Positions 1,748 to 37,354 are shown, numbered from the stretch's first letter. The stretch is 64,000 bases of DNA from a virus (IMGVR_UViG_3300021431_004524:128001-192000), one strand, 5' to 3'. Notes: generated by a model from the letters alone, not told the origin. Program-made: numbers and translations.

Positions 1748-3412
1748 ATGGCAAAGTTTAATTCAAAGAAAGAGGCTGTAAAGCCAACAGTGATTAACGA
1801 GATGGGTGAGAAGGCTTTTGAACTTACAGCAAAGGAAAATCTCGTACAGAGTGTGTTAACCACATTCCTTCAGGGACAGTACTATGAAAGTGAGTCAGAG
1901 GAAATGAAGAAAATCCTCGATTGTGTTGAGAAGGTTGACCCATTGTTCGTGGCAAAACTTGCATTATATGCACGTAATGAGGGTAATATGAGGTCATCAA
2001 GCCATCTGCTTGGTGCAGCATTGGCAAAGCATATTGCCGGTCAGGAATATGCCGCACGTTTCTATAACAAACTCATTGTACGTCCGGATGATATGTCTGA
2101 GGTGCTTTCATGCTATGGTTCATTGAACGGTATGAATCTTACCGATAAGTCACTTCGTAAGATTCCAAACTCTATCAAGAAGGGATTCAAGGCTGCACTT
2201 GAGCGTCTCGATGCTTATCAGATTGACAAATATAAGATGAATAGCCGTCAGGTGAAACTCATTGACCTTGTTAACCTGTTGCACCCAACACCAACACAGA
2301 AGAATAAGGAGGCATATAAGCGTCTTATCAACGGTGAGTCTCTTGCTGACCTTTATGAGAGCAAGGTGTTGGAGAAGGAAATGTCAAAGGGTGGCCAGAC
2401 AGCCAAGACTGAGGAAGAGAAGACTGCCGCCAAGGAGGAAGCAATCTCTTCTGTTCTTGACAATGTTAAGGGTATGCCAATTTTCAACTTGCTTCGCAAC
2501 TTGCGTAACATTATCCTCTATGCGCCAAACCGTATCGACGATGCTATTACACAGTTGACTACAAGGGAGAAGATTGTCAATTCAAGACTGCTTCCATTCC
2601 GTTTTGCAACTGCATACAATGAAATTGAGAATATGAGTTATGAGGCAAAGAAGCCTTCATCTTCAATCGCTTTGGAAAGCGAAATCAGTAAGATGAAACT
2701 CACTCAGAACGAGTTCGCTACTATTAAGGCAAAGGTTCTTAAGGCTCTTGAAGATGCACTTGAGTATGCTTGTGAGAATATTCCTGAGTTGGAAGGAGGA
2801 ACCTACATCCTTTGCGATGACAGTGGTTCAATGAGAGGTGATATGGGTGGTCATTCACGTGTATCTGCATTCTCAAAGACGACATCATCTACAATTGGTC
2901 ACTTGTTTGCCGCAATGGTCGGTTGGAAACAGAAGGATATTTATATCGGTCTGTTCGGTGATAGGCTCATTCCAGTGGAAGTTGACCGTTCTAAGAGGAT
3001 GCTCGATTTCTGTAACTACATGGACAGTAAGGGTGGCTCATGTGGCGGTGGTACAGAGGCCGGTATTTATGACTTCCTTCGTCAGTGCATTAAGGAGAAG
3101 AAGAAGGTGGATAACGTAATCGTCTTCTCTGACTGTCAGATTGGTTCCGGTGCAGAGACCGCATGGTATGGCGTGGATAGTAGTGACCGTAGTGGACGCT
3201 TCCAGGACTTGTTCAAGGAGTTCAAGAAGATTAACCCAATGTGTAACTTCATTGTGTGCAATCTTCGTTCGGCTAAGGGCAACTCAGTATTCCACAAGTC
3301 ACAGAGAATACTTAACATCGCTGGTTGGAGTGAGAAGATTTTCGACGTGATTAAGTCCAATACCGTTGGTATGGAGGCAATCATCAAGAAGATTGAAGCC
3401 ATCGAGATATAA
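1748..3412 (+). CDS. TROVE/vWA domain protein (Ro60/Rsr ortholog)
   Basis: KLALYARNEGNMRS, RPDDMSE, LVNLLHP, LLRNLRNI, RLLPFRF; vWA MIDAS DDSGSM. Confidence 0.92.
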   Translation: MAKFNSKKEAVKPTVINEMGEKAFELTAKENLVQSVLTTFLQGQYYESESEEMKKILDCVEKVDPLFVAKLALYARNEGNMRSSSHLLGAALAKHIAGQEYAARFYNKLIVRPDDMSEVLSCYGSLNGMNLTDKSLRKIPNSIKKGFKAALERLDAYQIDKYKMNSRQVKLIDLVNLLHPTPTQKNKEAYKRLINGESLADLYESKVLEKEMSKGGQTAKTEEEKTAAKEEAISSVLDNVKGMPIFNLLRNLRNIILYAPNRIDDAITQLTTREKIVNSRLLPFRFATAYNEIENMSYEAKKPSSSIALESEISKMKLTQNEFATIKAKVLKALEDALEYACENIPELEGGTYILCDDSGSMRGDMGGHSRVSAFSKTTSSTIGHLFAAMVGWKQKDIYIGLFGDRLIPVEVDRSKRMLDFCNYMDSKGGSCGGGTEAGIYDFLRQCIKEKKKVDNVIVFSDCQIGSGAETAWYGVDSSDRSGRFQDLFKEFKKINPMCNFIVCNLRSAKGNSVFHKSQRILNIAGWSEKIFDVIKSNTVGMEAIIKKIEAIEI

Positions 3413-5764: not shown

Positions 5765-5812
5765 GGTAGAAATACCAAATGTAAGTTTCCAAACAGAGTT
5801 CTTTGACATATT
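5765..5812 (+). promoter_or_regulatory. putative boxB/boxA antitermination leader
   Basis: GGTA-GAAA-TACC hairpin followed by GAGTTCTTTGACAT (rrn boxA-like). Confidence 0.55.
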
Positions 5813-6016
5813 GGGACAACAAAATAAAGCAAAAAAAATCAATTCGGAGAGGATTGGTGAAAAACCACATTCATTTTTGCCTATAAGGTGACGAATTGGG
5901 GTCAGGTAGTCAGTAATTACAAGCCCACCTTACGGGATGAGCCTATAAGCAAACAAAATGAATTAGTTCAGTAAATATAAGGTAGAAATACCTAACAGAA
6001 TTCCAAGTTGAGACAT

Positions 6017-6172
6017 TCAGGTGTAGCTCAGAGGCAGAGCAACGGACTGTATACAGAGTAAACTGTAAAATCAAACTCAGCAATTAAAAATGGAAACATT
6101 AATGATTTCCCGGTTCGACTCCGGGTTGTTGGGCTAATCCGTAGGTCGAGATTTCGAAATTCTCCACCTGAG
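6017..6172 (+). tRNA. tRNA-Asn(GTT) with 84-nt intron (6051-6134)
   Basis: TCAGGTG/CACCTGA, G73, short variable loop; CTGT|...|TAA joins to CT GTT AA. Confidence 0.8.
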
Positions 6173-6180
6173 CATATATA

Positions 6181-6467
6181 GAACAAGTACAGACCACTGA
6201 GTAGGAACTGGGGGAAGTGATAGGTAAATGCTAGATTCATATTTATCACGCAGACGGACTCAAAGTAGTACCGACAGACCAGTGAAAGGTGTTGGTTAGG
6301 TTAATTCCTAAAACGTGAAGAGCAGCGGATTCTGTGAAGAGCCATATGACACGGAACACAACAAACGTCGTAAAACAGCGCAAGTGCCTAATAGCGGGTT
6401 ACCTGATTAAATCTGAATAAGATGATAAAAGGTTGCAAAAGTCTGTACCTCGTCAATTTACTTGTTC
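6181..6467 (+). ncRNA. candidate structured ncRNA (~290 nt)
   Basis: GAACAAGTA/TACTTGTTC and GTACAGAC/GTCTGTAC long-range pairings; GC higher than spacers; no good ORF. Confidence 0.45.
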
Positions 6468-6638
6468 TTTTAATTTTAAAAATAGTTAAATTTCTTAACT
6501 ATCATTTTTTGTTTTAAAAACTCCGAGGGAAGGAAATGGTTGGACTTACGGCAAATGCTAGGAACCTGATGAACCGTAAGACAAAGGTATGTTGTAGGAG
6601 TTGCAGGTGAAACGGACAACAGTGTAGGAGTTTTTTCT

Positions 6639-6711
6639 GGGGGAGAAGCTAACTTAGTAGAAGCGCTGGACTGAAAATCCAGAGGAGGTGGAGCGTAACC
6701 ACCCTCCCCCA
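6639..6711 (+). tRNA. tRNA-Phe(GAA)
   Basis: Cloverleaf, CTGGA CTGAAAA TCCAG; atypical T-loop AGCGTAA. Confidence 0.8.
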
Positions 6712-6720
6712 CTTTTTATT

Positions 6721-6888
6721 GGGAGGTTATTCCGTAAGTGGTAGCGGGGCTGACTGTATACAGAGTAAACTGAAAATCAAACTTCGTATTGGTCGAGTGG
6801 CTAAAACTTGCATACGTTGGTTCGAATCCAACATACGAAGCAAATCAGCTGCTTAACGGCTCGGGTGGTTCGACTCCATCACCTCCCA
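6721..6888 (+). tRNA. tRNA-Tyr(GTA) with 84-nt intron (6758-6841)
   Basis: GGGAGGT/ACCTCCC-A, long variable arm; CTGT|...|AAA joins to CT GTA AA. Confidence 0.87.
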
Positions 6889-7160
6889 CATCTAAATTCA
6901 GAACCTATGTTTTGCTGTGTCAGAGTAAATAAACAGTAGGTGGGATATGGTATGTCACCTTGAGAGAGGAAACAGAGAGAAAACGGCGAAATAGACGGTA
7001 GGCAAGTTCGTTCTTCGTTAATATCAGAATAAACCATTAATACTAGTTAAGGGTAATGAGGTTTTGTAGGTAAGGAAACCGCCACACTAAGTTTGGAAAC
7101 AATAAATAAGAACTAAGTGAAATGGTAAGTTGGTTTATGGATTTCCAACGTAAATTTTAT

Positions 7161-7235
7161 GGGCTGCTCATATAATGGTTATTATGCCGGCTTTGCAAGC
7201 CGGTCATCTGGTTTCGACTACCAGGCGGTCCACCA
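7161..7235 (+). tRNA. tRNA-Ala(TGC)
   Basis: Cloverleaf, G3-U70, encoded CCA. Confidence 0.9.
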
Positions 7236-7240
7236 TCAAT

Positions 7241-7314
7241 AGATGCTTAGTTCAGTTGATTAGAATATCGGTCTCCAAAACCGAGGGTCGGAGGTTTGAG
7301 TCCTTCAGCATCTG
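7241..7314 (+). tRNA. tRNA-Trp(CCA)
   Basis: TCGGT CTCCAAA ACCGA. Confidence 0.9.
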
Positions 7315-7324
7315 CATTTTATAT

Positions 7325-7396
7325 GGCGCATTCGTCTATCGGCCAGGACACAAGATTTTCATTCTTGGAAGAGCAGTTCGATTCTGCTATGCGCTA
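7325..7396 (+). tRNA. tRNA-Glu(TTC)
   Basis: CAAGA TTTTCAT TCTTG. Confidence 0.9.
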
Positions 7397-7412
7397 CTAT
7401 TAGTTTATCAAA

Positions 7413-7485
7413 CGGGATATGGTGTTTAATGGTAGCATCCTTGGTTTGGGACCAAGTGGAGTGGTTTCGAGTACCGCTATCCCGA
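7413..7485 (+). tRNA. tRNA-Pro(TGG)
   Basis: CGGGATA/TATCCCG; CTTGG TTTGGGA CCAAG. Confidence 0.9.
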
Positions 7486-7493
7486 CAAATGAT

Positions 7494-7565
7494 GGCCGGT
7501 TCGTCTATCGGTTAGGACACAAGATTTTCATTCTTGGAAGAGGGGTTCGATTCCCCTACCGGCTA
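7494..7565 (+). tRNA. tRNA-Glu(TTC), second copy
   Basis: Cloverleaf with same anticodon arm as 7325. Confidence 0.9.
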
Positions 7566-7576
7566 CTTTTATTTTC

Positions 7577-7648
7577 GCCTCCTTGGGTGAGTGGTTGAGC
7601 CACCGGTCTGCAAAACCGGGCACCCCTGTTCGAATCAGGGAGGAGGCT
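7577..7648 (+). tRNA. tRNA-Cys(GCA)
   Basis: CCGGT CTGCAAA ACCGG; U73. Confidence 0.92.
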
Positions 7649-7663
7649 CATATATAATTAATT

Positions 7664-7815
7664 GCCCTGTTAGCTCAATTGGTAGAGCAGCGCACTTGTA
7701 TAATGGAGTAAACCATTAATAAAAATCAAGACTATATAGATAGGTATTATAATAAGGTTCGAATCCTTTATATAGTCCAATGCGCAGGTTGTTGGTTCGA
7801 TTCCGACACAGGGCT
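7664..7815 (+). tRNA. tRNA-Thr(TGT) with 79-nt intron (7700-7778)
   Basis: GCCCTGT/ACAGGGC; GCGCA CTTGT|...|AA TGCGC. Confidence 0.87.
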
Positions 7816-7888
7816 CAAAAATAAAAAAGTTCAAATACTTGAAATATTTGAAAAATCCTTTATATTTATAATAAAGTGTAGTTCGAAT

Positions 7889-8482
7889 ATGAAGGTAAAT
7901 TGGATTAACGAAAAAGAAACTATTGAGAAACTTATAAAAGAAGGAGTATCATATGAACGTATTGGTAGGCAGTATGATGTTACAGGTGCCGCAGTTAAAA
8001 AGGCAGCAAAAAAATTAGGTATCGAACTTAAATATAGAAGGGAAATAAATCCCAACGAACATTTCAATAAAGGAGTTAAACAAATACATATTTGTTTAAA
8101 TTGTGGTAAAGAATTTGAACATAGTAGAAACACAAAAAATAAATTTTGTTCACACACTTGTCAACAGACATATCGACGTAAACAATATATAGAACGATGG
8201 AAAAATGGCGAAGAAAATGGATTAAGTGGTGAATATAATTTATCAAAAGTAATTAAACGTTATCTAATGGAAAAACATAATTACGAATGTGAGAAATGTG
8301 GATGGGGTGAAAAAAATATTTACACAAATACAATACCATTGGAAATACATCATATAGACGGTGATTATACTAACAATAAAGAAGAGAATCTACAGGTTTT
8401 ATGCCCTAACTGTCATTCTCTTACTGAAACACATAAATCACACAATAAAAAGGGCAGAAAGGGAAGAAAAAAATATAATTAA
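7889..8482 (+). CDS. HNH homing endonuclease with N-terminal HTH and Zn ribbons
   Basis: CLNC...FCSHTC, CEKC, LEIHHIDGD.TNN..ENLQVLCPNCH; free-standing within tRNA array. Confidence 0.9.
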   Translation: MKVNWINEKETIEKLIKEGVSYERIGRQYDVTGAAVKKAAKKLGIELKYRREINPNEHFNKGVKQIHICLNCGKEFEHSRNTKNKFCSHTCQQTYRRKQYIERWKNGEENGLSGEYNLSKVIKRYLMEKHNYECEKCGWGEKNIYTNTIPLEIHHIDGDYTNNKEENLQVLCPNCHSLTETHKSHNKKGRKGRKKYN

Positions 8483-8491
8483 TAGATAGTC

Positions 8492-8576
8492 GGCTTCATG
8501 GTGGAATTGGTAGACACGTCAGGTTTAAGCCCTGATGGGCATTGTGCCTGTTCGGGTTCGAGTCCCGATGAAGCCA
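8492..8576 (+). tRNA. tRNA-Leu(TAA)
   Basis: GGCTTCA/TGAAGCC-A, long variable arm. Confidence 0.9.
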
Positions 8577-8608
8577 CTGAATAATGGGTGTTTAACTCAG
8601 TGATAACT

Positions 8609-8682
8609 GTTGGCATAATTCAGTAGGTTAGAATGTCACGCTGATACCGTGAATGTGGGTGGTTCGAGTCCATCTGCCAACA
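8609..8682 (+). tRNA. tRNA-Ile(GAT)
   Basis: TCACG CTGATAC CGTGA. Confidence 0.88.
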
Positions 8683-8690
8683 CTTTTTAT

Positions 8691-8765
8691 AGTGCGTTAG
8701 TTCAGTAGGTTTAGAATGCCACACTGTCACTGTGGAGGTCGCCGGTTCGAATCCGGTACGCACTG
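8691..8765 (+). tRNA. tRNA-Asp(GTC)
   Basis: CCACA CTGTCAC TGTGG; G73. Confidence 0.92.
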
Positions 8766-8797
8766 CTTAACTATCTGATTATCAGTCAGTTATGTTT

Positions 8798-8951
8798 GAC
8801 TCCGTAGCTCAGTGGTAGAGCACCTGACTTTTTTAACGGAGAGAACCGTCTTAAACACATTTCCATGTTTAAAAGTGGTGAAACAGATGAAAGTCCGACT
8901 CTTTCACATGGAACAATCAGGGAGTCATGGGTTCAAGTCCCATCGGAGTCA
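8798..8951 (+). tRNA. tRNA-Lys(TTT) with 82-nt intron (8833-8914)
   Basis: GACTCCG/CGGAGTC; CCTGA CTTTT|...|AA TCAGG. Confidence 0.87.
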
Positions 8952-8963
8952 CAAAGTTAATAT

Positions 8964-9039
8964 GGGACAGTTGGCCGAGAGGTTAGGCGCAGGATTGTGG
9001 TTCCTGTTTACGTTGGTTCGAACCCAACACTGCCCCCCA
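8964..9039 (+). tRNA. tRNA-His(GTG)
   Basis: G-1/C73, CAGGA TTGTGGT TCCTG, encoded CCA. Confidence 0.88.
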
Positions 9040-9044
9040 TAATT

Positions 9045-9117
9045 GCACCATTGGTGTTAGCGATTAGCATATCAGACTTCCAATCTGAAGGGGACAGTTT
9101 GAATCTGTTATGGTGCT
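9045..9117 (+). tRNA. tRNA-Gly(TCC)
   Basis: TCAGA CTTCCAA TCTGA; U73. Confidence 0.88.
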
Positions 9118-9124
9118 CTAATTT

Positions 9125-9196
9125 GCAGTATTCGTATAGTGGTTATTACACCTGCTTGCCATGCAGGAGACGAAGTTTCGATTACTTTATACTGCT
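9125..9196 (+). tRNA. tRNA-Gly(GCC)
   Basis: CCTGC TTGCCAT GCAGG; U73. Confidence 0.88.
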
Positions 9197-9220
9197 CTAA
9201 TTAATAGAAATTGACGATAT

Positions 9221-9533
9221 AAGTTGAAATTAATTCAGCAATGTTGATGCAATGAAGATTATCATTGAAATCTGAGTTTATGCAGCGGTGGCCAGGTAAT
9301 TGCATCAGTAGTGGGTCAAACGACACTATGGTCAAATTGTTGGATTTACTTGCAGGGATTTCGACTTTTTTATGGAGAGTAAGGTGGCGCACTCCGCCGG
9401 AATAAAACGTCACGCTTATAAGTTGGAATTTTTAAATGCCTATTAGGACACCGAAAGGGTCGGGAGTAGATTTCATCCAAAAATTCGTATGAGGATTTCG
9501 AAAGGGTATTTAATCTTCGAAGGATTTCAACTT
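9221..9533 (+). ncRNA. candidate large structured ncRNA
   Basis: AAGTTGAAAT/ATTTCAACTT closing stem, internal GATGCAAT/ATTGCATC, GNRA hairpins; ORF-free gap in tRNA array. Confidence 0.4.
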
Positions 9534-9700
9534 TTTTGATATGGTTTTATTCTGACTTCGAGTAATGGCAATTCGGCAGAAAGCATTTGTAGGTTGTTAG
9601 ATGCTATAGAGTGATAATGGTTGGAGTCCATAATGTCGTTTTGTGTTATCTACTGCTTGGAGAACTCTAATTAAAACTATTTTTGCTTTATTATATAAAT

Positions 9701-10226
9701 GGAGACATAAGCCTAATTGGTAAGGCAGTGGTCTTGAATTTAATTCGAGTGCTATGGCGAGAAATCCCATAGTAGAATCTCCCTAAAACGGTGGAATTCC
9801 TTAAATAATAAGATACACTTATCTTACTACTTGTCAAATATTTAAGTGTATAATACTCGAAATTGAAATTAGAGGTGACTCCGAACCACAACGTTTAGTA
9901 ATTCCATAAAAATTAGACAAGGGAATTAATGTGGATTAACGTACTTATTATTTCAGAGACAGTTTATGCTTTAACTATAGTTCAAATACTGCATGAACAT
10001 TAAGAGAACACTACACTAACCAATAATGTGTAAGGATAATACCGTTCGAAAATAACTTATATCGGGTGGGTAAACTCTCTACAGAAGTGATGGTAATAAG
10101 GGGAGAGGATAAGTTATGAACGTGTAGAGACTGAACGGGAGATACCTAAGTTGAAATTAAAGGCATCACAATAGTGCGTGTCAGGCTTGCAAGCATTTCA
10201 ATATGGTAATAATAAACTGTCTTCCA
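9701..10226 (+). pseudogene. tRNA 5' half (Ser-like) interrupted by a decayed group I intron
   Basis: 5' exon GGAGACA...GTGGT CTT; P1 CTTGAAT/ATTCGAG with U.G; P3 ATCTCCC/GGGAGAT; R-motif GTAGAGACTGAACGG; P7 3' strand and 3' exon T-arm not found. Confidence 0.65.
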
Positions 10227-10230
10227 TTAA

Positions 10231-10320
10231 GGAGGGGTAACCGGTGTGGTATACCGGCGCGGTCTTGAAAACCGTTGGTTCGTGTAACAAGCGAATGGGA
10301 ATCGTGCTCTCACCCCTCCG
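10231..10320 (+). tRNA. tRNA-Ser(TGA)
   Basis: GGAGGGG/CCCCTCC-G, long variable arm, atypical T-loop. Confidence 0.8.
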
Positions 10321-10382
10321 CGTTTTTTTTTTTGTAAAACATCAACAAGAAGAGAAAAATTCTTAATAATGGTTGGACTAAA

Positions 10383-10469
10383 GGAGAGTGAACCTGTCGG
10401 GGATAGGGGCTGTCTGCTAAACAGTTCGTCCGGAGTATTTTGGATGTGGGTCGGGACCACCGCTCTCCG
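10383..10469 (+). tRNA. tRNA-Ser(GCT)
   Basis: GGAGAGT/GCTCTCC-G, CTGCTAA loop, long variable arm. Confidence 0.8.
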
Positions 10470-10480
10470 CAGAGTTATAT

Positions 10481-10602
10481 GGGCATATGGTGTAATGGAC
10501 TAACACGGCGCAAGCAAGGCGACTCTCACGCTCAGTGGCTTGAGCAACCACAAAAAAGAGAGTGTTGAAGTACAGATTTCGGTTTGAATCCGGATGTGTC
10601 CT
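10481..10602 (+). ncRNA. tRNA-like RNA with anticodon arm replaced by structured ~65-nt insert
   Basis: Acceptor GGGCATA/TGTGTCC, D-arm GTGT/ACAC, T-arm TTCGG TTTGAAT CCGGA intact; insert ACTCTC/GAGAGT, GCTCA/TGAGC, GTGG/CCAC. Confidence 0.6.
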
Positions 10603-10636
10603 CTAAGTTTAACATTAAAGAAGAAAGGATAGAATT

Positions 10637-11308
10637 ATGGATTCAAGTTGGAAATACCCAAGAACGTTTCACGTCCCGTTCTCAGAAGGGTTACAGAATG
10701 ATGACAGACGTGTTGATGACGATTGGTTTTCCTATTTGAAGGGAAAGGAACTTATTCTTAGCGAAAAATGCGACGGTGAGAATAATTCTATATCTCGTTA
10801 TGGTGTTTATGCTCGTTCTCATGCAGCACCTACAAGGAATCCTTGGTCAATAAACCTATGGGGAAATGACGGACTTTATTGGAGAGTTAAGGATTTGATT
10901 GGTGAAGATGAAATGATTTACGGTGAGAACTTATATGGTGTTCATTCAATTGAATATAACAGGTTGAAGGAATATTTCCATATGTTTGCCGTAAGGGATG
11001 AAGAGAAATGGTATTCTTGGGATGATGTTTCAGAAATGGCACAGATTCTTGATTTGCCGACTGTTCCTGTATTGGAAAGACGTTCATTTGACACTGAGGA
11101 TGAATTAAAGGAACGTGTATTATATTGGATGACGCAAGGCAGTAGGTATGGTGATACTATTGAGGGTGTTGTTATCCGTAATGCAGATAGTTATCCGATT
11201 GATGAGTTTTGCCATAATGTTGTGAAGTATGTACGTAAGAATCATGTTCAGACTGACCAATTTTGGGCAAAGAATTGGAGAAAAGCAAAAATAACGGAAT
11301 ATTATTAA
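10637..11308 (+). CDS. ATP-dependent RNA ligase (Rnl2-like family)
   Basis: KYPRT.H, motif I EKCDGEN, YGENL, EGVVIR, KYVR. Confidence 0.88.
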   Translation: MDSSWKYPRTFHVPFSEGLQNDDRRVDDDWFSYLKGKELILSEKCDGENNSISRYGVYARSHAAPTRNPWSINLWGNDGLYWRVKDLIGEDEMIYGENLYGVHSIEYNRLKEYFHMFAVRDEEKWYSWDDVSEMAQILDLPTVPVLERRSFDTEDELKERVLYWMTQGSRYGDTIEGVVIRNADSYPIDEFCHNVVKYVRKNHVQTDQFWAKNWRKAKITEYY

Positions 11309-11361
11309 CAACTTTTAATGAAAAATATTTGTGTATTTCAATGATTATTTGTACTTTTGCA
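11305..11361 (+). promoter_or_regulatory. Bacteroidota-type promoter for tnpB
   Basis: TTTG-N20-TACTTTTG. Confidence 0.7.
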
Positions 11362-11383
11362 CTCAGTTAATGAAAAAAAAATT

Positions 11384-12589
11384 ATGAAAAGAGGTTATAA
11401 GTATCGTATTTATCCAACAGAAGAGCAGAAGAATTATTTTAAGGTATGTTTTGCAGCAAACAGATGGTTTTGGAATTATGCTTTAGATAAAATCAATGCA
11501 CAATATGAAAAAGATAAAACACATTTGTCAGCACAATATAAGATTGCACGTGATTTACCATCCTTAAAAAAAGAGGAAAGTACATGTTGGATTGGGCACT
11601 GTGATGCAATGTCTTTTATTTACACGGCGCAAGCACTTGATGCATCTTTTAAGAAGTTTTTCAAGAAAGAAGGTGGGTTTCCAAAATATAAGTCGGCTAA
11701 ATATGATAATTCTTATACAATACAAATACAAGAAAAAGGTAAAACAATCATTGATTGGGATAAATCAATGATAAGAATAGGTAAAGCCGGCGATGTAAGT
11801 ATTGTTTTGCATAGGAAATTTAATGGGGTTATTAAATCGGTAACAGTTTCCAAGAAGAGTTTTGACTATTACGAAGTTTCACTTCTTGTTGATGATAATT
11901 TCGTCAAGCCGTCCGAAAAACGTATAACTACGTATGATGGTACTGTTGGAATCGACCTTGGGGTAAAATCCGATTCAAATGTAATTTTAACTGATGGCAC
12001 TAAATTTCCTGCAATTGAAGTAGGACGTGAAACTAAACGTATTGCAAGACTTAGACGTAGACTTTCCAAGAAGGAATGGAAAAAAACCGGTGAGAAAAGA
12101 TTTTCCAAAAAATATGGTAAGGAAGTTGATGTAAAAGTTCCCTCCAAGAATTACATAAAGTTAAAGAATCGTATTGCGAAACTTGAAGATGAAATTGTCA
12201 GAAAACGTACTTATAATACGCATATGATTACATCTTATGTCGCTAAGAATCCAAACGTCAATACGGTCTGCATTGAAGATTTGAATGTTAAGGGAATGGC
12301 TAAGAACCATCATATTGCAAAGTCCGTAAGTAATGCGAATATGGGTGAGGTTAAAAGGCAACTTGAATATAAATGTGATTGGAATGGAAAGAATCTGGTT
12401 ACTGTTGACAGATTTTATGCAAGTTCACAAATCTGTTCGTGTTGTGGGTTTAAAAACGAAAAGGTGAAGAATTTGTCGGTAAGACAATGGGTCTGTCCGA
12501 ATTGCGGGGTACATCATGATAGGGATGTGAATGCCGCACTTAATATTAAAAATGAAGGATATAGAATTATAACTGAAGGAAAACAGTGA
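11384..12589 (+). CDS. tnpB: TnpB / Cas12f-like RNA-guided RuvC nuclease, catalytically intact
   Basis: YKYRIYPT HTH start; RuvC D (GIDLG), E (IEDL), D (DRDVNAA); CSCC/CPNC Zn finger; likely start ATG 11384; no tnpA nearby. Confidence 0.92.
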   Translation: MKRGYKYRIYPTEEQKNYFKVCFAANRWFWNYALDKINAQYEKDKTHLSAQYKIARDLPSLKKEESTCWIGHCDAMSFIYTAQALDASFKKFFKKEGGFPKYKSAKYDNSYTIQIQEKGKTIIDWDKSMIRIGKAGDVSIVLHRKFNGVIKSVTVSKKSFDYYEVSLLVDDNFVKPSEKRITTYDGTVGIDLGVKSDSNVILTDGTKFPAIEVGRETKRIARLRRRLSKKEWKKTGEKRFSKKYGKEVDVKVPSKNYIKLKNRIAKLEDEIVRKRTYNTHMITSYVAKNPNVNTVCIEDLNVKGMAKNHHIAKSVSNANMGEVKRQLEYKCDWNGKNLVTVDRFYASSQICSCCGFKNEKVKNLSVRQWVCPNCGVHHDRDVNAALNIKNEGYRIITEGKQ

Positions 12590-12595
12590 ATAAAA

Positions 12596-12760
12596 AACCC
12601 TACCCAGGTGTATCGGGGATGTTAAGTCTGTGGATTACCCTCTAATGGATGAACGTGATTTATCACCTAAAAAGTTATGGTAAGTTGAATCAGAAAAACG
12701 GTTTACAACAAGTAAACGACCACCTAAGAAGCGATTTTTAGGTAACATTTTTAAAAGTAA
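12596..12760 (+). ncRNA. omegaRNA/tracrRNA-like segment
   Basis: Typical TnpB 3' flank pattern (GGGGATGTTAAGTCTGTGGA...TGAATCAGAAA) with hairpins; CACCTAA and TAACATTTT complementary to the CRISPR repeat. Confidence 0.6.
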
Positions 12761-12791
12761 TGTGGCGTAATCAATGCTTTATTGGAAATAT

Positions 12792-13197
12792 GGTGTATGC
12801 TGTATTAAAATGTTAGGTAAATACAACTGGAGTTGGTTGCATCCATTAGCGACAAAGCGGTGTATGTCATATTAAAATGTTAGGCGAATACAACAGGACT
12901 TCAAACCTACCCTCGAAAAGAACGGGTGTATGCCTCATTAAAATGTTAGGTGAATACAACCAGTAGTTAAGAGCCTCTTAAAGCAATGGGGTGTATACCA
13001 CATAAAATGCTAGGTAAATACAACTCAGACAGTCGAATGTTTCTTTGTCCTTTGGTGTATACTACATTAAAATGCTAGGTAAATACAACTTATTTCCTCT
13101 TGTTTCTTCGCTATTGAGGATGTATGTCACATTAAAATGCTAGGTGAATACAACGACCCGCTATCAAGGTCTTCCAATTGTTTGGTGTATGTTACAT
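12792..13197 (+). CRISPR. CRISPR array: 6 full 35-36-nt repeats plus a truncated 7th, 6 spacers of 29-31 nt
   Basis: Repeat GGTGTATnnnnnATTAAAATGYTAGGYRAATACAAC at 12792, 12859, 12925, 12990, 13054, 13119, (13184). Confidence 0.93.
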
Positions 13198-13211
13198 GAG
13201 ATTTGTATTAC

Positions 13212-13282
13212 TGGACCATGGTGTAATGGTAGCACCACAGATTTTGGTTCTGTCAGTTTCGGTTCGAATCCGGATGGTCCAA
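13212..13282 (+). tRNA. tRNA-Gln(TTG)
   Basis: TGGACCA/TGGTCCA; ACAGA TTTTGGT TCTGT. Confidence 0.9.
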
Positions 13283-13288
13283 CTATTT

Positions 13289-13360
13289 TGGAGATTGGTG
13301 TAATTGGCAACACGTGACACTCTGGATGTCAAATTATCAGTCCGAGTCTGGTATCTCCAA
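13289..13360 (+). tRNA. tRNA-Gln(CTG)
   Basis: TGACA CTCTGGA TGTCA. Confidence 0.87.
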
Positions 13361-13367
13361 CTAATTT

Positions 13368-13412
13368 GGCTTCATGCCGATACTCGTCCGGGTTCGAGTC
13401 CCGGTGAAGCCA
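13368..13412 (+). ncRNA. tRNA minihelix (acceptor plus T-arm only; Leu-like acceptor)
   Basis: GGCTTCA-13nt-CCGGG TTCGAGT CCCGG-TGAAGCC-A. Confidence 0.7.
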
Positions 13413-13484
13413 CTAAACAAATAGTCATTTAGTATTGAAAAACTGTTAAACTATATTTATATTAATATTAAATTTAATTAAAAG

Positions 13485-13784
13485 ATGGATGATATACTTG
13501 ACAGATATTTAGATGAAACACTTCTTACTGAGGAAGAGAGACAGAAAGTACAGCAACTTGCCGGTGATTATAATAGATTAGATATGGATTTATTTATAAG
13601 CAGAATTGGGGGTGCTGAAAAGATTGAAGAAATGAGGCGTATCAATGACAAGGCTGATAGAATGTATGTTGTCGATGGCGTAGTACATCATAAATCTGAC
13701 AAAACAAATGAAGATATTGAGGAATGGAAGAAAGGTTTTATGGAAGGATTTGAAGAAGCATACAAAAGATTAAACATGAAATAA
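13485..13784 (+). CDS. hypothetical protein
   Basis: 99-aa acidic ORF after a TATTTAT motif. Confidence 0.65.
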   Translation: MDDILDRYLDETLLTEEERQKVQQLAGDYNRLDMDLFISRIGGAEKIEEMRRINDKADRMYVVDGVVHHKSDKTNEDIEEWKKGFMEGFEEAYKRLNMK

Positions 13785-13806
13785 AAGATATATTTATCTA
13801 TAATAT

Positions 13807-14204
13807 GGGGATAACAGGAATTTGACAGCAAGTATGAAATGGTCTGTAAGCATGCAGTGTGAAGACTATTACACCTAAATCAATTGGTCGAACAATTAAT
13901 TGGCGAAACAACTTACGCTCTCGCTGCCTAATCGAAGTACAGTAGGTTACTGGCTTAATTCCCTTACAAGGTGAGGGAACGAGACATCACTTAATGAGTT
14001 ATTTTCTGAGACTTGTTAGTATAGTGGTGCAGGGAAATCAGAAATAGTCGGTCTATGCCTTGATGGATTGATGAAATTTAAAAGGATAAGAATGCAATTT
14101 GGTAGTCCAAGTCGTGTTGCATTATGAAAATCAAAATTGAACTAAGCATGTAGAAAGCATATTGTTTCCTTGTTTGGACGAGGTTTCGATTACCTCTATC
14201 TCCA
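13807..14204 (+). ncRNA. ssrA: tmRNA
   Basis: GGGGAT...GAATTTGAC 5' end; tag GETTYALAA* (13902-13931); 3' GACGAGGTTTCGATTACCTC-TATCTCCA. Confidence 0.93.
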
Positions 14205-14215
14205 CAAATTAGGAT

Positions 14216-14301
14216 GCCGTTGTACCCGAACTGGTATAGGGGACAGTCTAAGGAACTGTTGCGACGGAAGTTGCGTGAGGGTTCGACTCCCTCCAACGGC
14301 A
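14216..14301 (+). tRNA. tRNA-Leu(AAG)
   Basis: ACAGT CTAAGGA ACTGT, long variable arm, A73. Confidence 0.85.
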
Positions 14302-14311
14302 CAAACATGAT

Positions 14312-14463
14312 GGTTCCGTAGCTCAGTTGGATAGAGCAACTGCCTCTACAGAGTAGTTCACTGTGACGAACTTCATTACATGGTATTTAGAATACTTAAC
14401 GGAGCGAAACCGTGTGTAATGGCTCTAAGCAGTAGGTCATGCGTTCGAGCCGCATCGGAATCA
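14312..14463 (+). tRNA. tRNA-Arg(TCT) with 78-nt intron (14346-14423)
   Basis: GGTTCCG/CGGAATC; A20; ACTGC CT|...|TCTAA GCAGT. Confidence 0.82.
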
Positions 14464-14497
14464 CAAAATAATTATATTTATAATAAAATAGAGTGAA

Positions 14498-15154
14498 ATG
14501 ACAAATTTTGGTATTCCTGAACGAGTTGGTGAATATGATATAAAAATAGGTGAGTACTCTGTTCATGTAAGTATTCATCAAATGAATGCCCGTATGTCTA
14601 AAATGGATTTGTTGGGTACAAGAGGAACAATTGGTGGAACTAAGAGTATATTAGGACATGATATAACCGTTACTGATAAAGAAGGAAATATAGTTAAAAG
14701 TATAAAGGATATCGATGAAAGATATTTTACTGAATATATGGAATCTATATATAAAGAATATATGGATATAAATCCAGAAAAATTGAGTAATAAACTATAT
14801 AGTTTTATATGTTATGGAAATGGGCGTAGATTATCGATTCCAACAGGAGGGGTTAAAATATCAAGTATAGGCGATAATTTCGTTAAGGTAATATATGCCA
14901 TTGATAAATGGGGTGTTGATATAGATGGACTTATAACTGACCTTACTAACATAGGATGTACAGTAAAGAGACTTAAAGACAAAAATATAAGGTCATTCAG
15001 TTGTTTTGTATTGTCGGTATTAATACCGAAGCAGTTAAGTATAACTGAAGGAATAGTTGGTAAGAGATTGATAAGATTAACGGAATCTAATTTGCGTATG
15101 ATAATAGAAAATTCAGTGAATAGTGTACTGAAAGAAATGAAAATAGGAAAATAA
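14498..15154 (+). CDS. hypothetical phage protein with C-terminal RLTESNLRMIIENSV motif
   Basis: 218-aa ORF; motif of a type recurrent in large-phage proteins. Confidence 0.7.
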   Translation: MTNFGIPERVGEYDIKIGEYSVHVSIHQMNARMSKMDLLGTRGTIGGTKSILGHDITVTDKEGNIVKSIKDIDERYFTEYMESIYKEYMDINPEKLSNKLYSFICYGNGRRLSIPTGGVKISSIGDNFVKVIYAIDKWGVDIDGLITDLTNIGCTVKRLKDKNIRSFSCFVLSVLIPKQLSITEGIVGKRLIRLTESNLRMIIENSVNSVLKEMKIGK

Positions 15155-15176
15155 TTTTTCTTGAAATTTACAATTT

Positions 15177-15256
15177 TTAACGAAAAAAGTTTGGTAGTTT
15201 CAGAAATATGTAGTATCTTTGCACTGTCAAACGATGACAAAGAGTTCTTTAATATA
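15177..15256 (+). promoter_or_regulatory. Bacteroidota-type promoter plus boxA-like motif for the Y-RNA cluster
   Basis: TTTG(15190)-N20-TATCTTTG(15214); GAGTTCTTTAATAT at 15242. Confidence 0.7.
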
Positions 15257-15284
15257 TTTATAATGTAGAAAACAAAAAAATTAC

Positions 15285-15362
15285 GAATAGTGATGTGAGA
15301 GTTACTTCGATAAAATAGTGTGGATATTTTCAATCAAAACTCACTCTCGCTGTTTTTCTTTC
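15285..15362 (+). ncRNA. minimal Y-RNA-like stem (no tRNA domain)
   Basis: TAGTGA-GTGAGAG-TTACTTCGA ... CTCTCGC-TTTTCT. Confidence 0.7.
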
Positions 15363-15385
15363 GTTTTTTTTTTTTAAGATATAAG

Positions 15386-15528
15386 TTGGTAGTGAAGTTA
15401 AGGGTTACTTCGATTAATTATTGGTTCGAATCCAATAGATTCCGTTTGGGAATTTTGGCGAAAAGGTTAAACGCGAAACACTTGAAATGTTTTTTAGACA
15501 GAAACTCACCCTTGCTGTGATTCTCCAA
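15386..15528 (+). ncRNA. Y-RNA-like RNA with tRNA domain opened at the variable loop (T-acceptor-D-anticodon TGA)
   Basis: ATTGG TTCGAAT CCAAT; ATTCC/GGAAT; GCG..CGC; AAACA CTTGAAA TGTTT; stem AAGGG/CCCTT. Confidence 0.75.
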
Positions 15529-15538
15529 TTTTTTTATA

Positions 15539-15678
15539 CGGGCGTAAAGTTTAGAAAAAGAAATTTACTGAAGGTATTTTCTTTGATTTTTCAATAGTGA
15601 ACTTTACAGTTACTTCGAATGGTTAAAACGTTATCCTGTCAAGATAAAGATTCTGGGTTCGACTCCCAGTACGCCCGC
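15539..15678 (+). ncRNA. tRNA-Asp(GTC) body with a circularly permuted Y stem inserted in the D-loop
   Basis: CGGGCGT/ACGCCCG, TTATC CTGTCAA GATAA, T-arm; Y 3' strand precedes 5' strand, closed by TTGA-TTTT-TCAA. Confidence 0.75.
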
Positions 15679-15683
15679 AAACA

Positions 15684-15814
15684 ACAAGTAGTGACAGAAG
15701 AGTTACTTCGATTTTTTAGCTAAGTTGGTTATAGCACAAAACAGTTAATTTTGGTGACCGGGGTTCGAGTCCCCGAAGAATCTATTTTGTAATACTCTTC
15801 TAATTTTCTCTTGT
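15684..15814 (+). ncRNA. Y-RNA-like RNA enclosing a whole tRNA-Asn(GTT)-like cloverleaf (15710-15783)
   Basis: Stem AGAAGAGT/ACTCTTCT; CAAAA CAGTTAA TTTTG; CGGGG TTCGAGT CCCCG. Confidence 0.78.
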
Positions 15815-15849
15815 TTTTCTTTTGAAAGTAGTATGTATTTATAAGAAAT

Positions 15850-15986
15850 ATGCAGTAGTGACGTGACTGTTACTTCGATAACATTTAGACAAGTGGTTAA
15901 GTCGCAATTTTTGGGTAATTGAGAACGCCGGTCCAATTCCGGCAATGTTGTAAACAATAGCAAACAGTCACAAATTTTCTCTGTAT
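15850..15986 (+). ncRNA. Y-RNA-like RNA enclosing a whole tRNA-Pro(TGG)-like cloverleaf (15879-15951)
   Basis: Stem GTGACTG/CAGTCAC; CAATT TTTGGGT AATTG; GCCGG TCCAATT CCGGC. Confidence 0.78.
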
Positions 15987-15995
15987 TTTTATGAT

Positions 15996-16081
15996 TGGGG
16001 ATTAGTTTAATGGTAAAACGACGGCCTCATAAGCCGGGGACATTTGTGTGCATTGTGTTGGTCCGAATCCAACATCCCCAA
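15996..16081 (+). tRNA. tRNA(CAT) (Met or Ile2) with long variable region
   Basis: TGGGGAT/ATCCCCA; CGGC CTCATAA GCCG; ~19-nt variable region. Confidence 0.7.
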
Positions 16082-16182
16082 CATTTTTAGAAAGTTGTCC
16101 CAATATATCGTAGGGAGCATGCAATTGTCTTGAAATACAGACTTTTGCATATTTTATTTTATATATAAAGACTTATTATTAA

Positions 16183-16554
16183 TTGAAAATGAGCGTAAAC
16201 AGATATGATGAATTATTAAGACAGTTATATGAGAAAGACTTTGTTAATTTGAGGTTCACTGTATTCAATTTTATTGACAGTGACGGTTATGTAAATGAAA
16301 TTTCGGCATTGAATAAGGCACATTACGGTATTGATGATTTTGAATTTATGGTATTTGACATTTCTGATGAGGATAAAAAGGCGATTAAGAATGGAAATGC
16401 GTTTATAATTCAGAAATACCGTGCATTTAAGCATTATATTGAAAAAGAGTGTCAGGAAGTTCCGAATTGTGCTATTTTCATCATGAAAGATTTAGGGATT
16501 GTCATTGCGGTTAAGTTAAAATATTATAATCTTGGAAAAATGAAGGAAGTTTAG
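16183..16554 (+). CDS. hypothetical protein
   Basis: ORF; probable start ATG 16189. Confidence 0.6.
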   Translation: MKMSVNRYDELLRQLYEKDFVNLRFTVFNFIDSDGYVNEISALNKAHYGIDDFEFMVFDISDEDKKAIKNGNAFIIQKYRAFKHYIEKECQEVPNCAIFIMKDLGIVIAVKLKYYNLGKMKEV

Positions 16555-34512: not shown

Positions 34513-35181
34513 ATGAAAAATGAAACAGATAAGAAGACCCAGCTGATGAACCACCTTCCGCAAGTATGGTTTACGGCTGACCTGCATTTTCATCATAAAA
34601 ACATCTTGAAGCATTGTCCTGAACGTGGAAAGGTAGGTGGATTTGAACCTGATGATGTTGAGTCACATGACAAGTGGCTATTGGAGAAATGGAATGAAAC
34701 TATTGGAAAGAAAGACATAGTATATGTATTAGGTGATTTTGCATTTGGCTCACCTGAGAATGTCAAGAAGTTACTTGGCAAGTTAAATGGTCAAAAATTT
34801 CTTATTTTAGGAAACCACGATAAATCATCAGAGCATCTTGAAGGTTATTTCAAGCAGATAACACAAATGAAATGTGTTACCTTTAAAAAGTCCAACTATG
34901 ATTTTCTTGATGAAGACTTTATGGTGTATATGTGTCACTATCCGATGATAACATGGCCAAGTAAACATTATGGGTGTGTGGAATGTCACGGGCATTCTCA
35001 CAATAGATTAACCGAGTATAATGAGGAATCACCTGACCTTAGAATAGATGTTGGAATTGATAATGGTTTTAAATTTTGGAGTTTGAAAGATGTTTATTCC
35101 TATTTCAAGGAAAAGACAAATGGTGAAAAATTCTTGCATTATGCAATGGAGAAAAAAGAACAAAGAGAAATGATTATTTAA
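34513..35181 (+). CDS. calcineurin-like metallophosphoesterase
   Basis: DLH, LGDF, GNHD, CHYP, HGHSH. Confidence 0.9.
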   Translation: MKNETDKKTQLMNHLPQVWFTADLHFHHKNILKHCPERGKVGGFEPDDVESHDKWLLEKWNETIGKKDIVYVLGDFAFGSPENVKKLLGKLNGQKFLILGNHDKSSEHLEGYFKQITQMKCVTFKKSNYDFLDEDFMVYMCHYPMITWPSKHYGCVECHGHSHNRLTEYNEESPDLRIDVGIDNGFKFWSLKDVYSYFKEKTNGEKFLHYAMEKKEQREMII

Positions 35182-37039: not shown

Positions 37040-37354
37040 ATGGATAGGGAAAATATTTTAAATGAGATTTACTCTCTTATTTTGGAGAATGGCGTTTTTA
37101 CTGAGAAAATTGATGTGCTTGAAGAGGACAACAGAGTCTACACTAAAAAGATTCCTGTTGATATTATGCTTGATGGCAATAAAATCAAGTTTGTTTCTGT
37201 AAGTGGATATAACGAGGATTTGTCTGATACCTCTTATAATGATTTAAGAATTAATATTCTGAATTACAGTGGCGGATTTCTTAATTTATTCTGTGCATCC
37301 GTCAGTGATGAAGTATTGTATAACATTTTGACTTCTTTAAAAAATAATGCATAA
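37040..37354 (+). CDS. hypothetical protein
   Basis: 104-aa ORF. Confidence 0.6.
   Translation: MDRENILNEIYSLILENGVFTEKIDVLEEDNRVYTKKIPVDIMLDGNKIKFVSVSGYNEDLSDTSYNDLRINILNYSGGFLNLFCASVSDEVLYNILTSLKNNA

Follow-up and report, generated by a model that had tools for sequence, protein, structure and literature searches.

Lak-type introns in five phage tRNA genes join a hairpin module to a tRNA-like unit: anatomy, junctions and a possible route of excision

We begin by considering a stretch of viral DNA of 64,000 nucleotides (IMGVR_UViG_3300021431_004524:128001-192000, called the window below, with positions counted from its first letter), which is part of a 235,653-bp IMG/VR virus record (G000) and holds a large transfer RNA (tRNA) cluster, a transfer-messenger RNA (tmRNA) and RNA-repair genes. 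The phage reads well in the standard code. Five tRNA genes of the cluster (Asn, Tyr, Thr, Lys and Arg, all on the plus strand) are each interrupted in the anticodon loop by an insert of 78-84 nt, whose parts follow one another in a single order: N-UA, a hairpin, an A-rich linker, a 13-bp tRNA-like helix with a T loop, and a single C. The hairpins have a stem of 3-6 bp and a purine-rich loop (AGTAAA in three copies, AGAGAA in one and AGTAGTTCA in one), and in the nested unit an acceptor-like stem and a T arm (GGTTCGAATCC-like) form one stack, with the two separated by a D-loop-like GG. The helix has 13 bp in every copy, divided as 8+5, 9+4 or 7+6; the 8+5-bp minihelix described in an initial annotation of the sequence is right in its total length but not as a fixed division.

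The bit scores given with the inserts are those of a covariance model, R1, which is introduced with the family below. The tRNA-Asn(GUU) gene has its exon 1 at 6017-6050 (ending in CUGU, from sequence reading and ARAGORN) and its exon 2 at 6135-6173 (starting with UAA); the intron between them (6051-6134, 75.6 bits) opens with A-UA and consists of a hairpin at 6052-6067 (TACAG/AGTAAA/CTGTA), a linker at 6068-6075, the 13-bp helix at 6076-6133 and the C at 6134. In tRNA-Tyr(GUA), the intron (6758-6841, 90 bits) lies between exon 1 (6721-6757) and an exon 2 with a long variable arm and an N73-C74 end (6842-6889), and contains the hairpin CAG/AGTAAA/CTG (6761-6772), a linker (6773-6781), the tRNA-like unit (6782-6840) and C 6841. 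The exons of tRNA-Thr(UGU) occupy 7664-7699 and 7779-7816, with an intron at 7700-7778 (44.2 bits) made of the hairpin TAATGG/AGTAAA/CCATTA (7701-7718), a linker (7719-7729), a 9+4 unit of 13 bp (7730-7777) and C 7778, while those of tRNA-Lys(UUU) occupy 8798-8832 and 8915-8952, with an intron at 8833-8914 (42.4 bits) made of the hairpin ACGG/AGAGAA/CCGT (8836-8849), a linker (8850-8860), an 8+5 unit of 13 bp (8861-8913) and C 8914. The most divergent copy interrupts tRNA-Arg(UCU), between exon 1 (14312-14345, ending in CU) and exon 2 (14424-14464, starting with UCUAA): its intron (14346-14423, 14.2 bits) has the hairpin TACAG/AGTAGTTCA/CTGTG (14347-14365), a linker (14366-14372), a 9+4 unit of 13 bp with the T loop AGCGAAA (14373-14422) and C 14423. 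Sequence reading and folding agree exactly with the insert coordinates of the initial annotation, and the hairpins and acceptor-like stems quoted in it are correct.

A descriptor search of both strands of the 235-kb record, in which an acceptor/T-arm helix had to contain a short internal gap and to be closed by a T-loop-like loop, returns the five intronic units, a free-standing mini-tRNA (13367-13412) and four matches without a T-loop sequence, and a hairpin search finds the AG-purine-loop hairpin confined to the inserts. The Rfam tRNA model matches the nested unit of the Tyr intron with 34.5 bits and covers 7664-7815 and 8798-8951 as tRNAs with a long insertion. The free-standing mini-tRNA stands directly after tRNA-Gln(CTG) and has a 13-bp acceptor/T helix followed by C. 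It is an internally deleted tRNA-Leu, with the acceptor and T arm kept and without D, anticodon and variable arms; a sister phage (IMGVR_UViG_3300028048_000064, L105) carries a full tRNA-Leu(CAA) in its place (L105:11730-11814), and the deletion shows how nested mini-tRNAs can arise from whole tRNAs. Two further tRNA-like arrangements are seen in these phages. At 10481-10603 of the window, a sequence with the acceptor GGGCATA/TGTGTCC, a D arm and a T arm has an extra segment of ~50 nt after the anticodon-arm region, with neither the hairpin-and-linker module nor a mini-tRNA in it. In the sister phage, a tRNA at L105:13964-14129 contains a 93-nt insert that resembles a whole tRNA and lacks the hairpin module; the window has at the syntenic position (15996-16082) a tRNA-Met-like gene whose variable region is long.

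The next question is where the inserts begin and end. Under the rule that the cuts fall before N-UA and after the terminal C, removal leaves the 7-nt loops CUGUUAA, CUGUAAA, CUUGUAA, CUUUUAA and CUUCUAA, and ARAGORN reads the spliced forms as Asn GTT, Tyr GTA, Thr TGT, Lys TTT and Arg TCT. The syntenic Thr(TGT), Lys(TTT) and Arg(TCT) genes of the sister phage are intron-less and have the predicted loops, and alignment of the intron-less tRNA-Tyr of Enterococcus phage PBEF129 with the window exons leaves a single clean gap of 84 nt at 6758-6841. Both the ARAGORN readings and these intron-less counterparts bear out the earlier proposal that precise removal restores 7-nt loops with matching anticodons. 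Without the five interrupted genes, normal genes for Tyr, Thr, Lys and Arg would be missing from the cluster, and Asn would be left to a single odd Asn-like gene. When applied to the interrupted genes, ARAGORN misses all five in its bacterial mode, and its intron mode puts the inserts elsewhere and calls the anticodons Ser, Gly, Val and Lys; the anticodon identity therefore depends on where the cuts are placed. Arg is interrupted at 33/34, Asn and Tyr at 35/36, and Thr and Lys at 36/37, with the Tyr junction ambiguous by one base (35/36 or 36/37). Because the junctions are fixed relative to the intron structures and variable within the anticodon loop, the intron carries its own cut-site information.

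We turn our attention to the family to which these inserts belong. Conserved "enigmatic introns" were described in the tRNAs of Lak megaphages by Devoto et al. (2019, Nat Microbiol, PMC6784885, Fig. 4 and Table S6); one of them "may encode a tRNA", and they are given as having "no hit in rfam". That paper offers neither a shared architecture nor a mechanism. Later papers say just that such introns exist or "could encode another tRNA", and our literature search on the mechanism or on the sequence of the module returned nothing beyond Devoto 2019 and one-line remarks. The covariance model R1 was trained on three copies of the window phage group and three Lak copies, the Lak-A1 (L224) and Lak-A2 sequences being taken from GenBank. 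It gives 66-84 bits to the Asn, Phe and Gly introns of Lak, and Lak and window copies are found reciprocally. The window Thr and Lys introns, on which the model had not been trained, reach 44 and 42 bits (E about 1e-5), the Arg intron is weak and yet aligned end to end, and a further intron is found in the tRNA-Tyr of the sister phage (46.5 bits). A fourth lineage, a 302-kb phage, has two family introns, in Phe(GAA) and Arg(CCU). The family set is thus 13 introns in four phage lineages (five in the window, two in the sister phage, two in the 302-kb phage and four in Lak).

All 13 members have N-UA and a hairpin, the 13-bp helix and the terminal C, and all sit in the anticodon loop, at 33/34, 35/36 or 36/37. 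The initial annotation had each insert following an exon U, which holds for the five window copies but not throughout the family, where the last exon base is U in nine members, A in three and C in one. In an alignment of nine members, pairing is found in 99.3% of the cells, as compared with 24-42% after the 3' partners have been slid; 14 of the 16 pairs change on both sides, and none of 500 shuffles reaches the observed values. This alignment was fitted to the structure of the model, which favours pairing, and the margin is large. The strong covariation of the helices, G-U pairs included, therefore points to an RNA structure under selection. Two wider searches gave no further member: a model search of the whole records of the three huge phages with the closest ligases (LR756502, LR745206, LR756500) finds no intron, its one 31-bit match being an ordinary tRNA, and the pattern TAAA..AAATYAA..GGTTCGAHTCC gives no new intron among the matches listed.

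The window and Lak introns share N-UA, a hairpin with an A(G/A)UAAA-type loop, an AAAUYAA linker, the 13-bp tRNA-like helix and the terminal C; the tRNAs that carry them overlap (Phe, Thr, Asn, Gly), as probably do the hosts (Bacteroidota, with Prevotella for Lak). The window phage differs in being far smaller (a 235-kb record) and in having introns also in Tyr, Lys and Arg, and the nested unit in Lak is a full tRNA. We also note that the Lak-A1 gene published as an intron-bearing tRNA-Tyr(GTA), at L224:30022-30114 on the minus strand, reads Asn(GTT) when the junction is placed by the rule of helix plus C, and that its variable loop is short, unlike that of bacterial Tyr tRNAs. The covariance model and the shared architecture support the earlier view that the inserts form a single family in which a hairpin module is combined with a nested tRNA-like unit, and the suspicion that megaphage introns of this kind had been noted before was right (PMC6784885). 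Calling them a distinct new family was an overstatement: judged by their sequences and R1 scores, they are a new set of members of a published yet unexplained family. What is new here is the structural rule, the match to tRNA gene ends that stop at C74, the independent 5' signal, and the recombination of modules together with a polymorphism of intron presence.

The 3' end of the introns copies the ends of ordinary phage tRNA genes. In the four intron-bearing lineages these genes end in N73-C74 followed by an A/U-rich trailer: nucleotide 74 is C in 74 of 78 genes, nucleotide 75 is A or T, and a full CCA is encoded in 5 of 78 (the base composition of the window is 15.8% C). The terminal C of the intron lies 14 nt from the T loop, the same distance as C74 in a normal tRNA, and a 13th pair (N-1:N73) is formed in every copy, far above chance. 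The tRNA genes that have C74 and then A or T suggest, as read from sequence, that 3' processing may take place after C74 or that a 3' nuclease has a special need for it.

A second class of introns can be compared with this one. In the phages of sample 3300045988, CCA is encoded in 50 of 51 tRNA genes, and their introns are flush with the acceptor stem and end in ACAA, ACCG, TCCA, ACCA or CCCA; flush CCA-ended mini-tRNA introns of other large phages are the subject of a one-line remark in PMC13037316 (2026). The two classes share a tRNA-shaped insert in the anticodon loop of a phage tRNA, a 3' end that copies the tRNA gene ends of the phage, and a proposed route of trimming enzymes and a ligase. 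The flush introns begin at the first base of the acceptor stem, so that RNase P could make their 5' cut, have an NCCA end and have helices of 12-13 bp, whereas the window introns place a hairpin-plus-linker module of 24-31 nt before the mini-tRNA, end in a single C and fall outside the flush class. The flush introns of sample 3300045988 are mini-tRNAs of 50-69 nt (L009, L018, L025, L040, L073, L075 and L093), and the same phages also have a tRNA-like gene with a 46-nt insert bearing a GAGTAAAC hairpin (e.g., L009:7195-7313). The 3' end of an intron thus tracks the tRNA 3' end that the phage encodes in its genes, and this is the strongest argument that tRNA 3'-end machinery makes the 3' cut. 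The substrate features of RNase Z are present in the sequence (a coaxial acceptor/T-arm helix, a T loop, an unpaired base after the helix and no CCA), with a putative substrate helix of 13 bp, not 12. The RNase Z-like 3' cut proposed earlier gains real support from the helix-plus-C copies of N73-C74 ends and from the NCCA introns of CCA-type phages, support that is drawn from sequence only.

The 5' module (N-UA, a hairpin with an A(G/A)UAAA loop and an AAAUYAA linker) is the most conserved part of the intron and always starts one base after the junction. Two phages have it without a single difference in their Tyr introns, and it is almost the same in the Asn, Tyr and Phe introns; the Lak Gly introns, the Arg(CCU) intron and one free-standing copy have a variant whose stem is CAAG/CTTG. 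The module also leads a life apart from introns. Its pattern, ACAGAGTAAACTG-N0-6-AAATCAA, occurs in 70 IMG/VR stretches, as against one for the reversed letters, and 19 times when 596 Gb of prokaryote genomes are searched; tRNA introns account for just three of the 70. The remaining copies lie in smaller phage contigs (~60, L246-L314, e.g., L250:10993-11014), in sense orientation between genes and usually singly in a phage fragment, and some of these contigs are complete genomes of 65-89 kb with neither such introns nor an RNA ligase. In the 56 distinct non-intron contexts, a same-strand open reading frame (ORF) ends 0-5 nt before the module in 41, and a small same-strand ORF (42-158 amino acids among those downstream) starts 27-59 nt after it in 48, with a leader that is G-poor, A-rich and devoid of a Shine-Dalgarno sequence. 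Neither the free-standing module nor the gene downstream of it is matched in GenBank phages or PHROGs, our search of the literature on the module found nothing, and a search of the genome for a trans-acting RNA complementary to the module gave nothing consistent. Among the module copies, the distance from the hairpin to the linker motif differs by 1-5 nt; because the stems covary while the spacing varies, the module reads as an RNA signal, most simply a processing site and not a promoter. Its occurrence alone between genes in many smaller phages makes it probably a general RNA-processing site for a host or phage endonuclease.

Comparison with the sister phage shows how these parts move. The Tyr exons are identical in the two phages and are followed by the same 5' module, with different nested tRNAs: the nested unit of the window Tyr intron (CTTCGTAT...ATACGAAG) is located in the tRNA-Phe of the sister phage, whose Tyr intron has a different and larger tRNA-like unit behind the identical module. 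Thr, Lys and Arg are split in the window phage and not in its sister, and Phe is split in the sister only. As judged from these sequences, the modules recombine and the introns show a presence/absence polymorphism. The window Thr gene and an HNH endonuclease gene together replace a different, intron-less Thr gene of the sister phage, which fits a replacement driven by a homing endonuclease. The HNH gene (7889-8482) is free-standing, with the interrupted tRNA-Thr on one side and tRNA-Leu on the other, and the sister phage lacks it. DNA transposition of the IS200/IS605 kind, with the hairpin as a left end and a TnpB gene nearby, was considered and set aside, as the T loop, the GG and the G-U pairs indicate selection at the level of RNA.

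We now examine how the inserts compare with intervening sequences of known kinds. To our knowledge, the removal of tRNA introns in bacteria and their viruses is by self-splicing only. The group I introns of bacterial tRNA anticodon loops resemble the inserts in their site, in being mobile and in often following a U, but they are about 200 nt or more, against 78-84 nt here, and the inserts lack a P3-P9 core and end in C, not G. The introns of archaea and eukaryotes with a bulge-helix-bulge (BHB) are cut by EndA/TSEN and joined by RtcB or by Trl1 and Tpt1. They are protein-dependent, as is proposed for the inserts, and located in or near the anticodon loop, and the window phage has a ligase and a Tpt1; it differs in that the intron, and not the tRNA body, determines where the cuts fall, and in that no EndA or RtcB is found in the record. 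The junctions of the inserts lie in a multi-helix junction adjoining intron-internal helices, and since the bases beside both junctions are taken up by these helices, no BHB is possible. Searched against Rfam at gathering thresholds and at E<=5, the sequence gives only tRNA, tmRNA and weak noise: Intron_gpI has no match even at E<=5, and neither has any hammerhead, twister, pistol, hatchet or HDV-like ribozyme in 5800-16300 of the window. The earlier exclusion of group I and II introns, BHB introns and Rfam ribozymes agrees with these searches, with the lack of a foldable BHB and with that of EndA.

Two other systems offer parts of a likeness. In processing of the MALAT1/mascRNA type, a tRNA-like element within a longer RNA is cut by RNase P and RNase Z. 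Here too an embedded tRNA mimic would recruit tRNA-end enzymes and is preceded by a hairpin and an A-rich tract, but the eukaryotic system involves no re-ligation and has a U-rich triple-helix hairpin, whereas the flanks in the window have to rejoin into a tRNA; the Rfam mascRNA model has a weak match to the free mini-tRNA (13368-13411). In the repair of broken anticodon loops by phage T4 (Pnkp and Rnl1; PMC7824862), a phage RNA ligase, which in the window phage is accompanied by an HD-Pnk, can reseal the loop. T4 repair, however, mends the damage done by a host nuclease and removes no intervening sequence (PMC7824862). By analogy, a toolkit of the T4 kind could serve splicing.

Combining this information, we explore how the introns might be removed; the splicing itself, and every enzymatic step of it, we infer. 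In the reading that we favour, and to which we give an even chance on the strength of sequence features, the inserts would be true intervening sequences of the Lak type, removed from the pre-tRNA by proteins and not by self-splicing, through two signals. The 3' signal would be the tRNA mimic, that is, the 13-bp acceptor/T-arm stack with its T loop, D-loop-like GG and one C. As the mimic presents the same end as ordinary phage tRNA genes, a trimming enzyme of the RNase Z/BN type would cut after the C, leaving exon 2 with a 5'-phosphate. The 5' junction is out of reach of RNase P, as it lies 24-31 nt away from the mini-tRNA; the 5' module would instead direct an endonuclease that reads the hairpin, setting the cut one base before the U-A that opens it. 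Cutting of the RNase E/G type would suit the invariant U at +2 and the single-stranded A/U context, although this is a guess. The exon ends would then be held together by the tRNA body and sealed by an RNA ligase, most simply a phage ligase that joins 3'-OH and 5'-P ends. By the hypothesis of the initial annotation, the inserts might also serve to hide anticodons from host nucleases until they are needed. Pairing between exon and intron (CUG/CAG) was tried as a guide and rejected, as it holds just for the tRNAs with G34. A wider and more tentative proposal takes the module as a portable RNA cleavage signal of Bacteroidota phages (UA, the hairpin with an AGUAAA loop, and AAAUCAA) that would be used for the processing of intergenic mRNA and, fused to a tRNA mimic, for mobile and modular tRNA introns. 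A signal-specific endonuclease, a 3'-end nuclease acting after C74 and a ligase would then possibly make up a third, protein-only route of tRNA splicing, unrelated to BHB/EndA or to self-splicing.

The candidate for the sealing enzyme is an ATP-dependent RNA ligase encoded within the tRNA cluster (10637-11308, plus strand; PF09414, 6.8e-27), which is 97% identical to the ligase of the sister phage and has no relative among solved structures by sequence. PF09414 ligases lie within the tRNA clusters of the window phage, the sister phage and Lak-A1, and the record encodes a second one (G000:215727-216407) that is 60% identical to the ligase in the Lak-A1 tRNA region. With the family present in three of the four lineages, its link to the introns is plausible, not secure. 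The record also encodes an HD-Pnk fusion, two metallophosphoesterases and a Tpt1/KptA RNA 2'-phosphotransferase (window 37347-37898, plus strand); a calcineurin-like metallophosphoesterase in the window (34513-35181, plus strand) may be an RNA end-healing enzyme. The co-occurrence of Tpt1 gives no support for a link with the introns: it is present in the window phage but absent from the complete Lak-A1, the sister phage and the CCA-type phages. Its use as a marker of the pathway was rejected, and the part suggested for it in the initial annotation is hypothetical. An HD-Pnk homologue is also absent from the complete Lak-A1, and neither protein is therefore part of a common pathway.

Several observations count against the favoured reading. 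The 302-kb phage, which has two introns and is 82% complete, has no PF09414, RtcB or Rnl1 ligase that we could find, and a phage ligase is therefore not demonstrably required; the role of sealer assigned earlier to the ligase at 10637 is a putative one. Searches of the record for a metallo-beta-lactamase-fold RNase Z, a CCA-adding enzyme, RNase E/G, RtcB and EndA (PF01974) found none of them. As none of these nucleases is found in the record, the cutting would fall to host enzymes, and the host is itself only inferred to belong to the Bacteroidota (in control searches, Bacteroides has members of the RNase E/G and RtcB families). A cut after C74 instead of N73 departs from the textbook site of RNase Z, and the HD-Pnk and Tpt1 of the window phage would equally suit cuts that leave a cyclic phosphate. 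Finally, the free-standing module could be an element that is not cleaved at all, e.g., a stability hairpin of a 5' untranslated region or one that binds a protein.

Other explanations can be weighed on the same evidence. If the inserts were selfish DNA that is retained in the RNA, the genes would be dead or would yield tRNA halves or decoys. The presence/absence polymorphism, the same element in different tRNAs and the HNH gene that adjoins the Thr copy and is missing from the sister phage all agree with this, but all 13 copies sit in the anticodon loop and nowhere else, the exons are intact (those of Tyr are identical in two phages despite their differing nested units), the cluster would be left without normal Tyr, Thr, Lys and Arg genes and with only the odd Asn-like one, the stems keep pairing through G-U pairs and double changes, and the ends mimic tRNA processing sites; we consider this explanation unlikely. 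A still less probable scheme uses RNase P and RNase Z alone, which would free the nested mini-tRNA and leave the hairpin and linker as a 3' flap on exon 1, to be trimmed by an exonuclease, perhaps with the help of Ro60 and Y RNA, before ligation. The nested unit does have all that the two enzymes need, both leave ends that a ligase can join directly, the A-rich linker would give an exonuclease its single-stranded 3' tail, and the phage encodes Ro60 and Y-RNA-like modules. Trimming, however, cannot account for junctions that are exact to the base at distances of 2, 4 or 5 nt from the anticodon stem; a strongly conserved module that always begins one base past the junction indicates a defined cut there; and the 13th pair (N-1:N73) would disturb the normal choice of site by RNase P.

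The module, alone or with the nested helix, might also be a new small self-cleaving ribozyme that cleaves at the 5' edge of the module, with the resulting 2',3'-cyclic phosphate healed by HD-Pnk or a phosphoesterase, the 2'-phosphate cleared by Tpt1 and the ends sealed by the ligase. It is conserved and widespread in intergenic regions of phages, as small ribozymes are, no nuclease candidate has been found, and the phage encodes HD-Pnk, metallophosphoesterases and Tpt1. Such a ribozyme is nevertheless improbable with about 25 conserved nucleotides that form only a simple hairpin of 3-6 bp, no conserved tertiary pairing found and no Rfam ribozyme match even at E<=5, and the complete Lak-A1 has the introns without a Tpt1 or HD-Pnk homologue. 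What we find hardest to credit is that the module acts on DNA, serving as a promoter or as a hairpin recognized by a DNA enzyme, so that the nested tRNA and exon 2 form a separate transcript or the insert is excised from the DNA. The free-standing copies do lie 27-59 nt before start codons, a plausible place for a promoter or transcript start, and many are preceded by a TATAAT-like A/T-rich sequence. A hairpin-linker spacing that varies by 1-5 nt, a stem that covaries to unrelated sequences and includes a U-G pair, and the usual single copy per phage fragment where many might be found make this highly improbable; within the tRNAs, moreover, the upstream promoter elements would fall in unrelated exon sequences.

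The surroundings of the cluster have several features of their own. Downstream of the ligase, 11357-13200 holds a TnpB/Cas12f-like ORF (PF07282, PF12323) and then a CRISPR-like array of ~36-bp repeats, and the order of ligase and TnpB recurs in Lak-A1 beside a ligase fragment (L228). At 1748-3412 and 15285-15990 we find a Ro60/TROVE gene and repeated TAGTGA...TACTTCGA stems grafted on tRNA-like units, an arrangement that is Y-RNA-like; the Rfam YrlA model has only weak matches, and these are elsewhere. Long blocks of the tRNA cluster that are free of ORFs (6174-6474, 6506-6636, 6894-7157 and 9218-9801) share 85-99% identity with the sister phage without matching any Rfam family, and they are possibly structured RNAs of new kinds. 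Outside the window, G000:C1:213833-223636 is an RNA-repair neighbourhood with a 599-amino-acid PHA02142 OB-fold protein, the second PF09414 ligase, a metallophosphoesterase, a PP2C phosphatase, a radical-SAM protein and the HD-Pnk fusion (HD plus P-loop kinase, 387 amino acids).

The correct junction rules mend the annotation of tRNAs in phages of this kind, where ARAGORN and tRNAscan misplace the introns and miscall the anticodons. The window makes the question of these introns concrete, with five members in one cluster, intron-less alleles in a sister phage and a precise rule for both junctions, and since the 5' half of the intron occurs as an independent signal in dozens of smaller phages, its function can be tested separately from the introns. 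If true, excision by ordinary RNA-processing enzymes followed by resealing by a ligase would be a new splicing route, and such a route would also explain the introns of the Lak megaphages, which have been called enigmatic since 2019.

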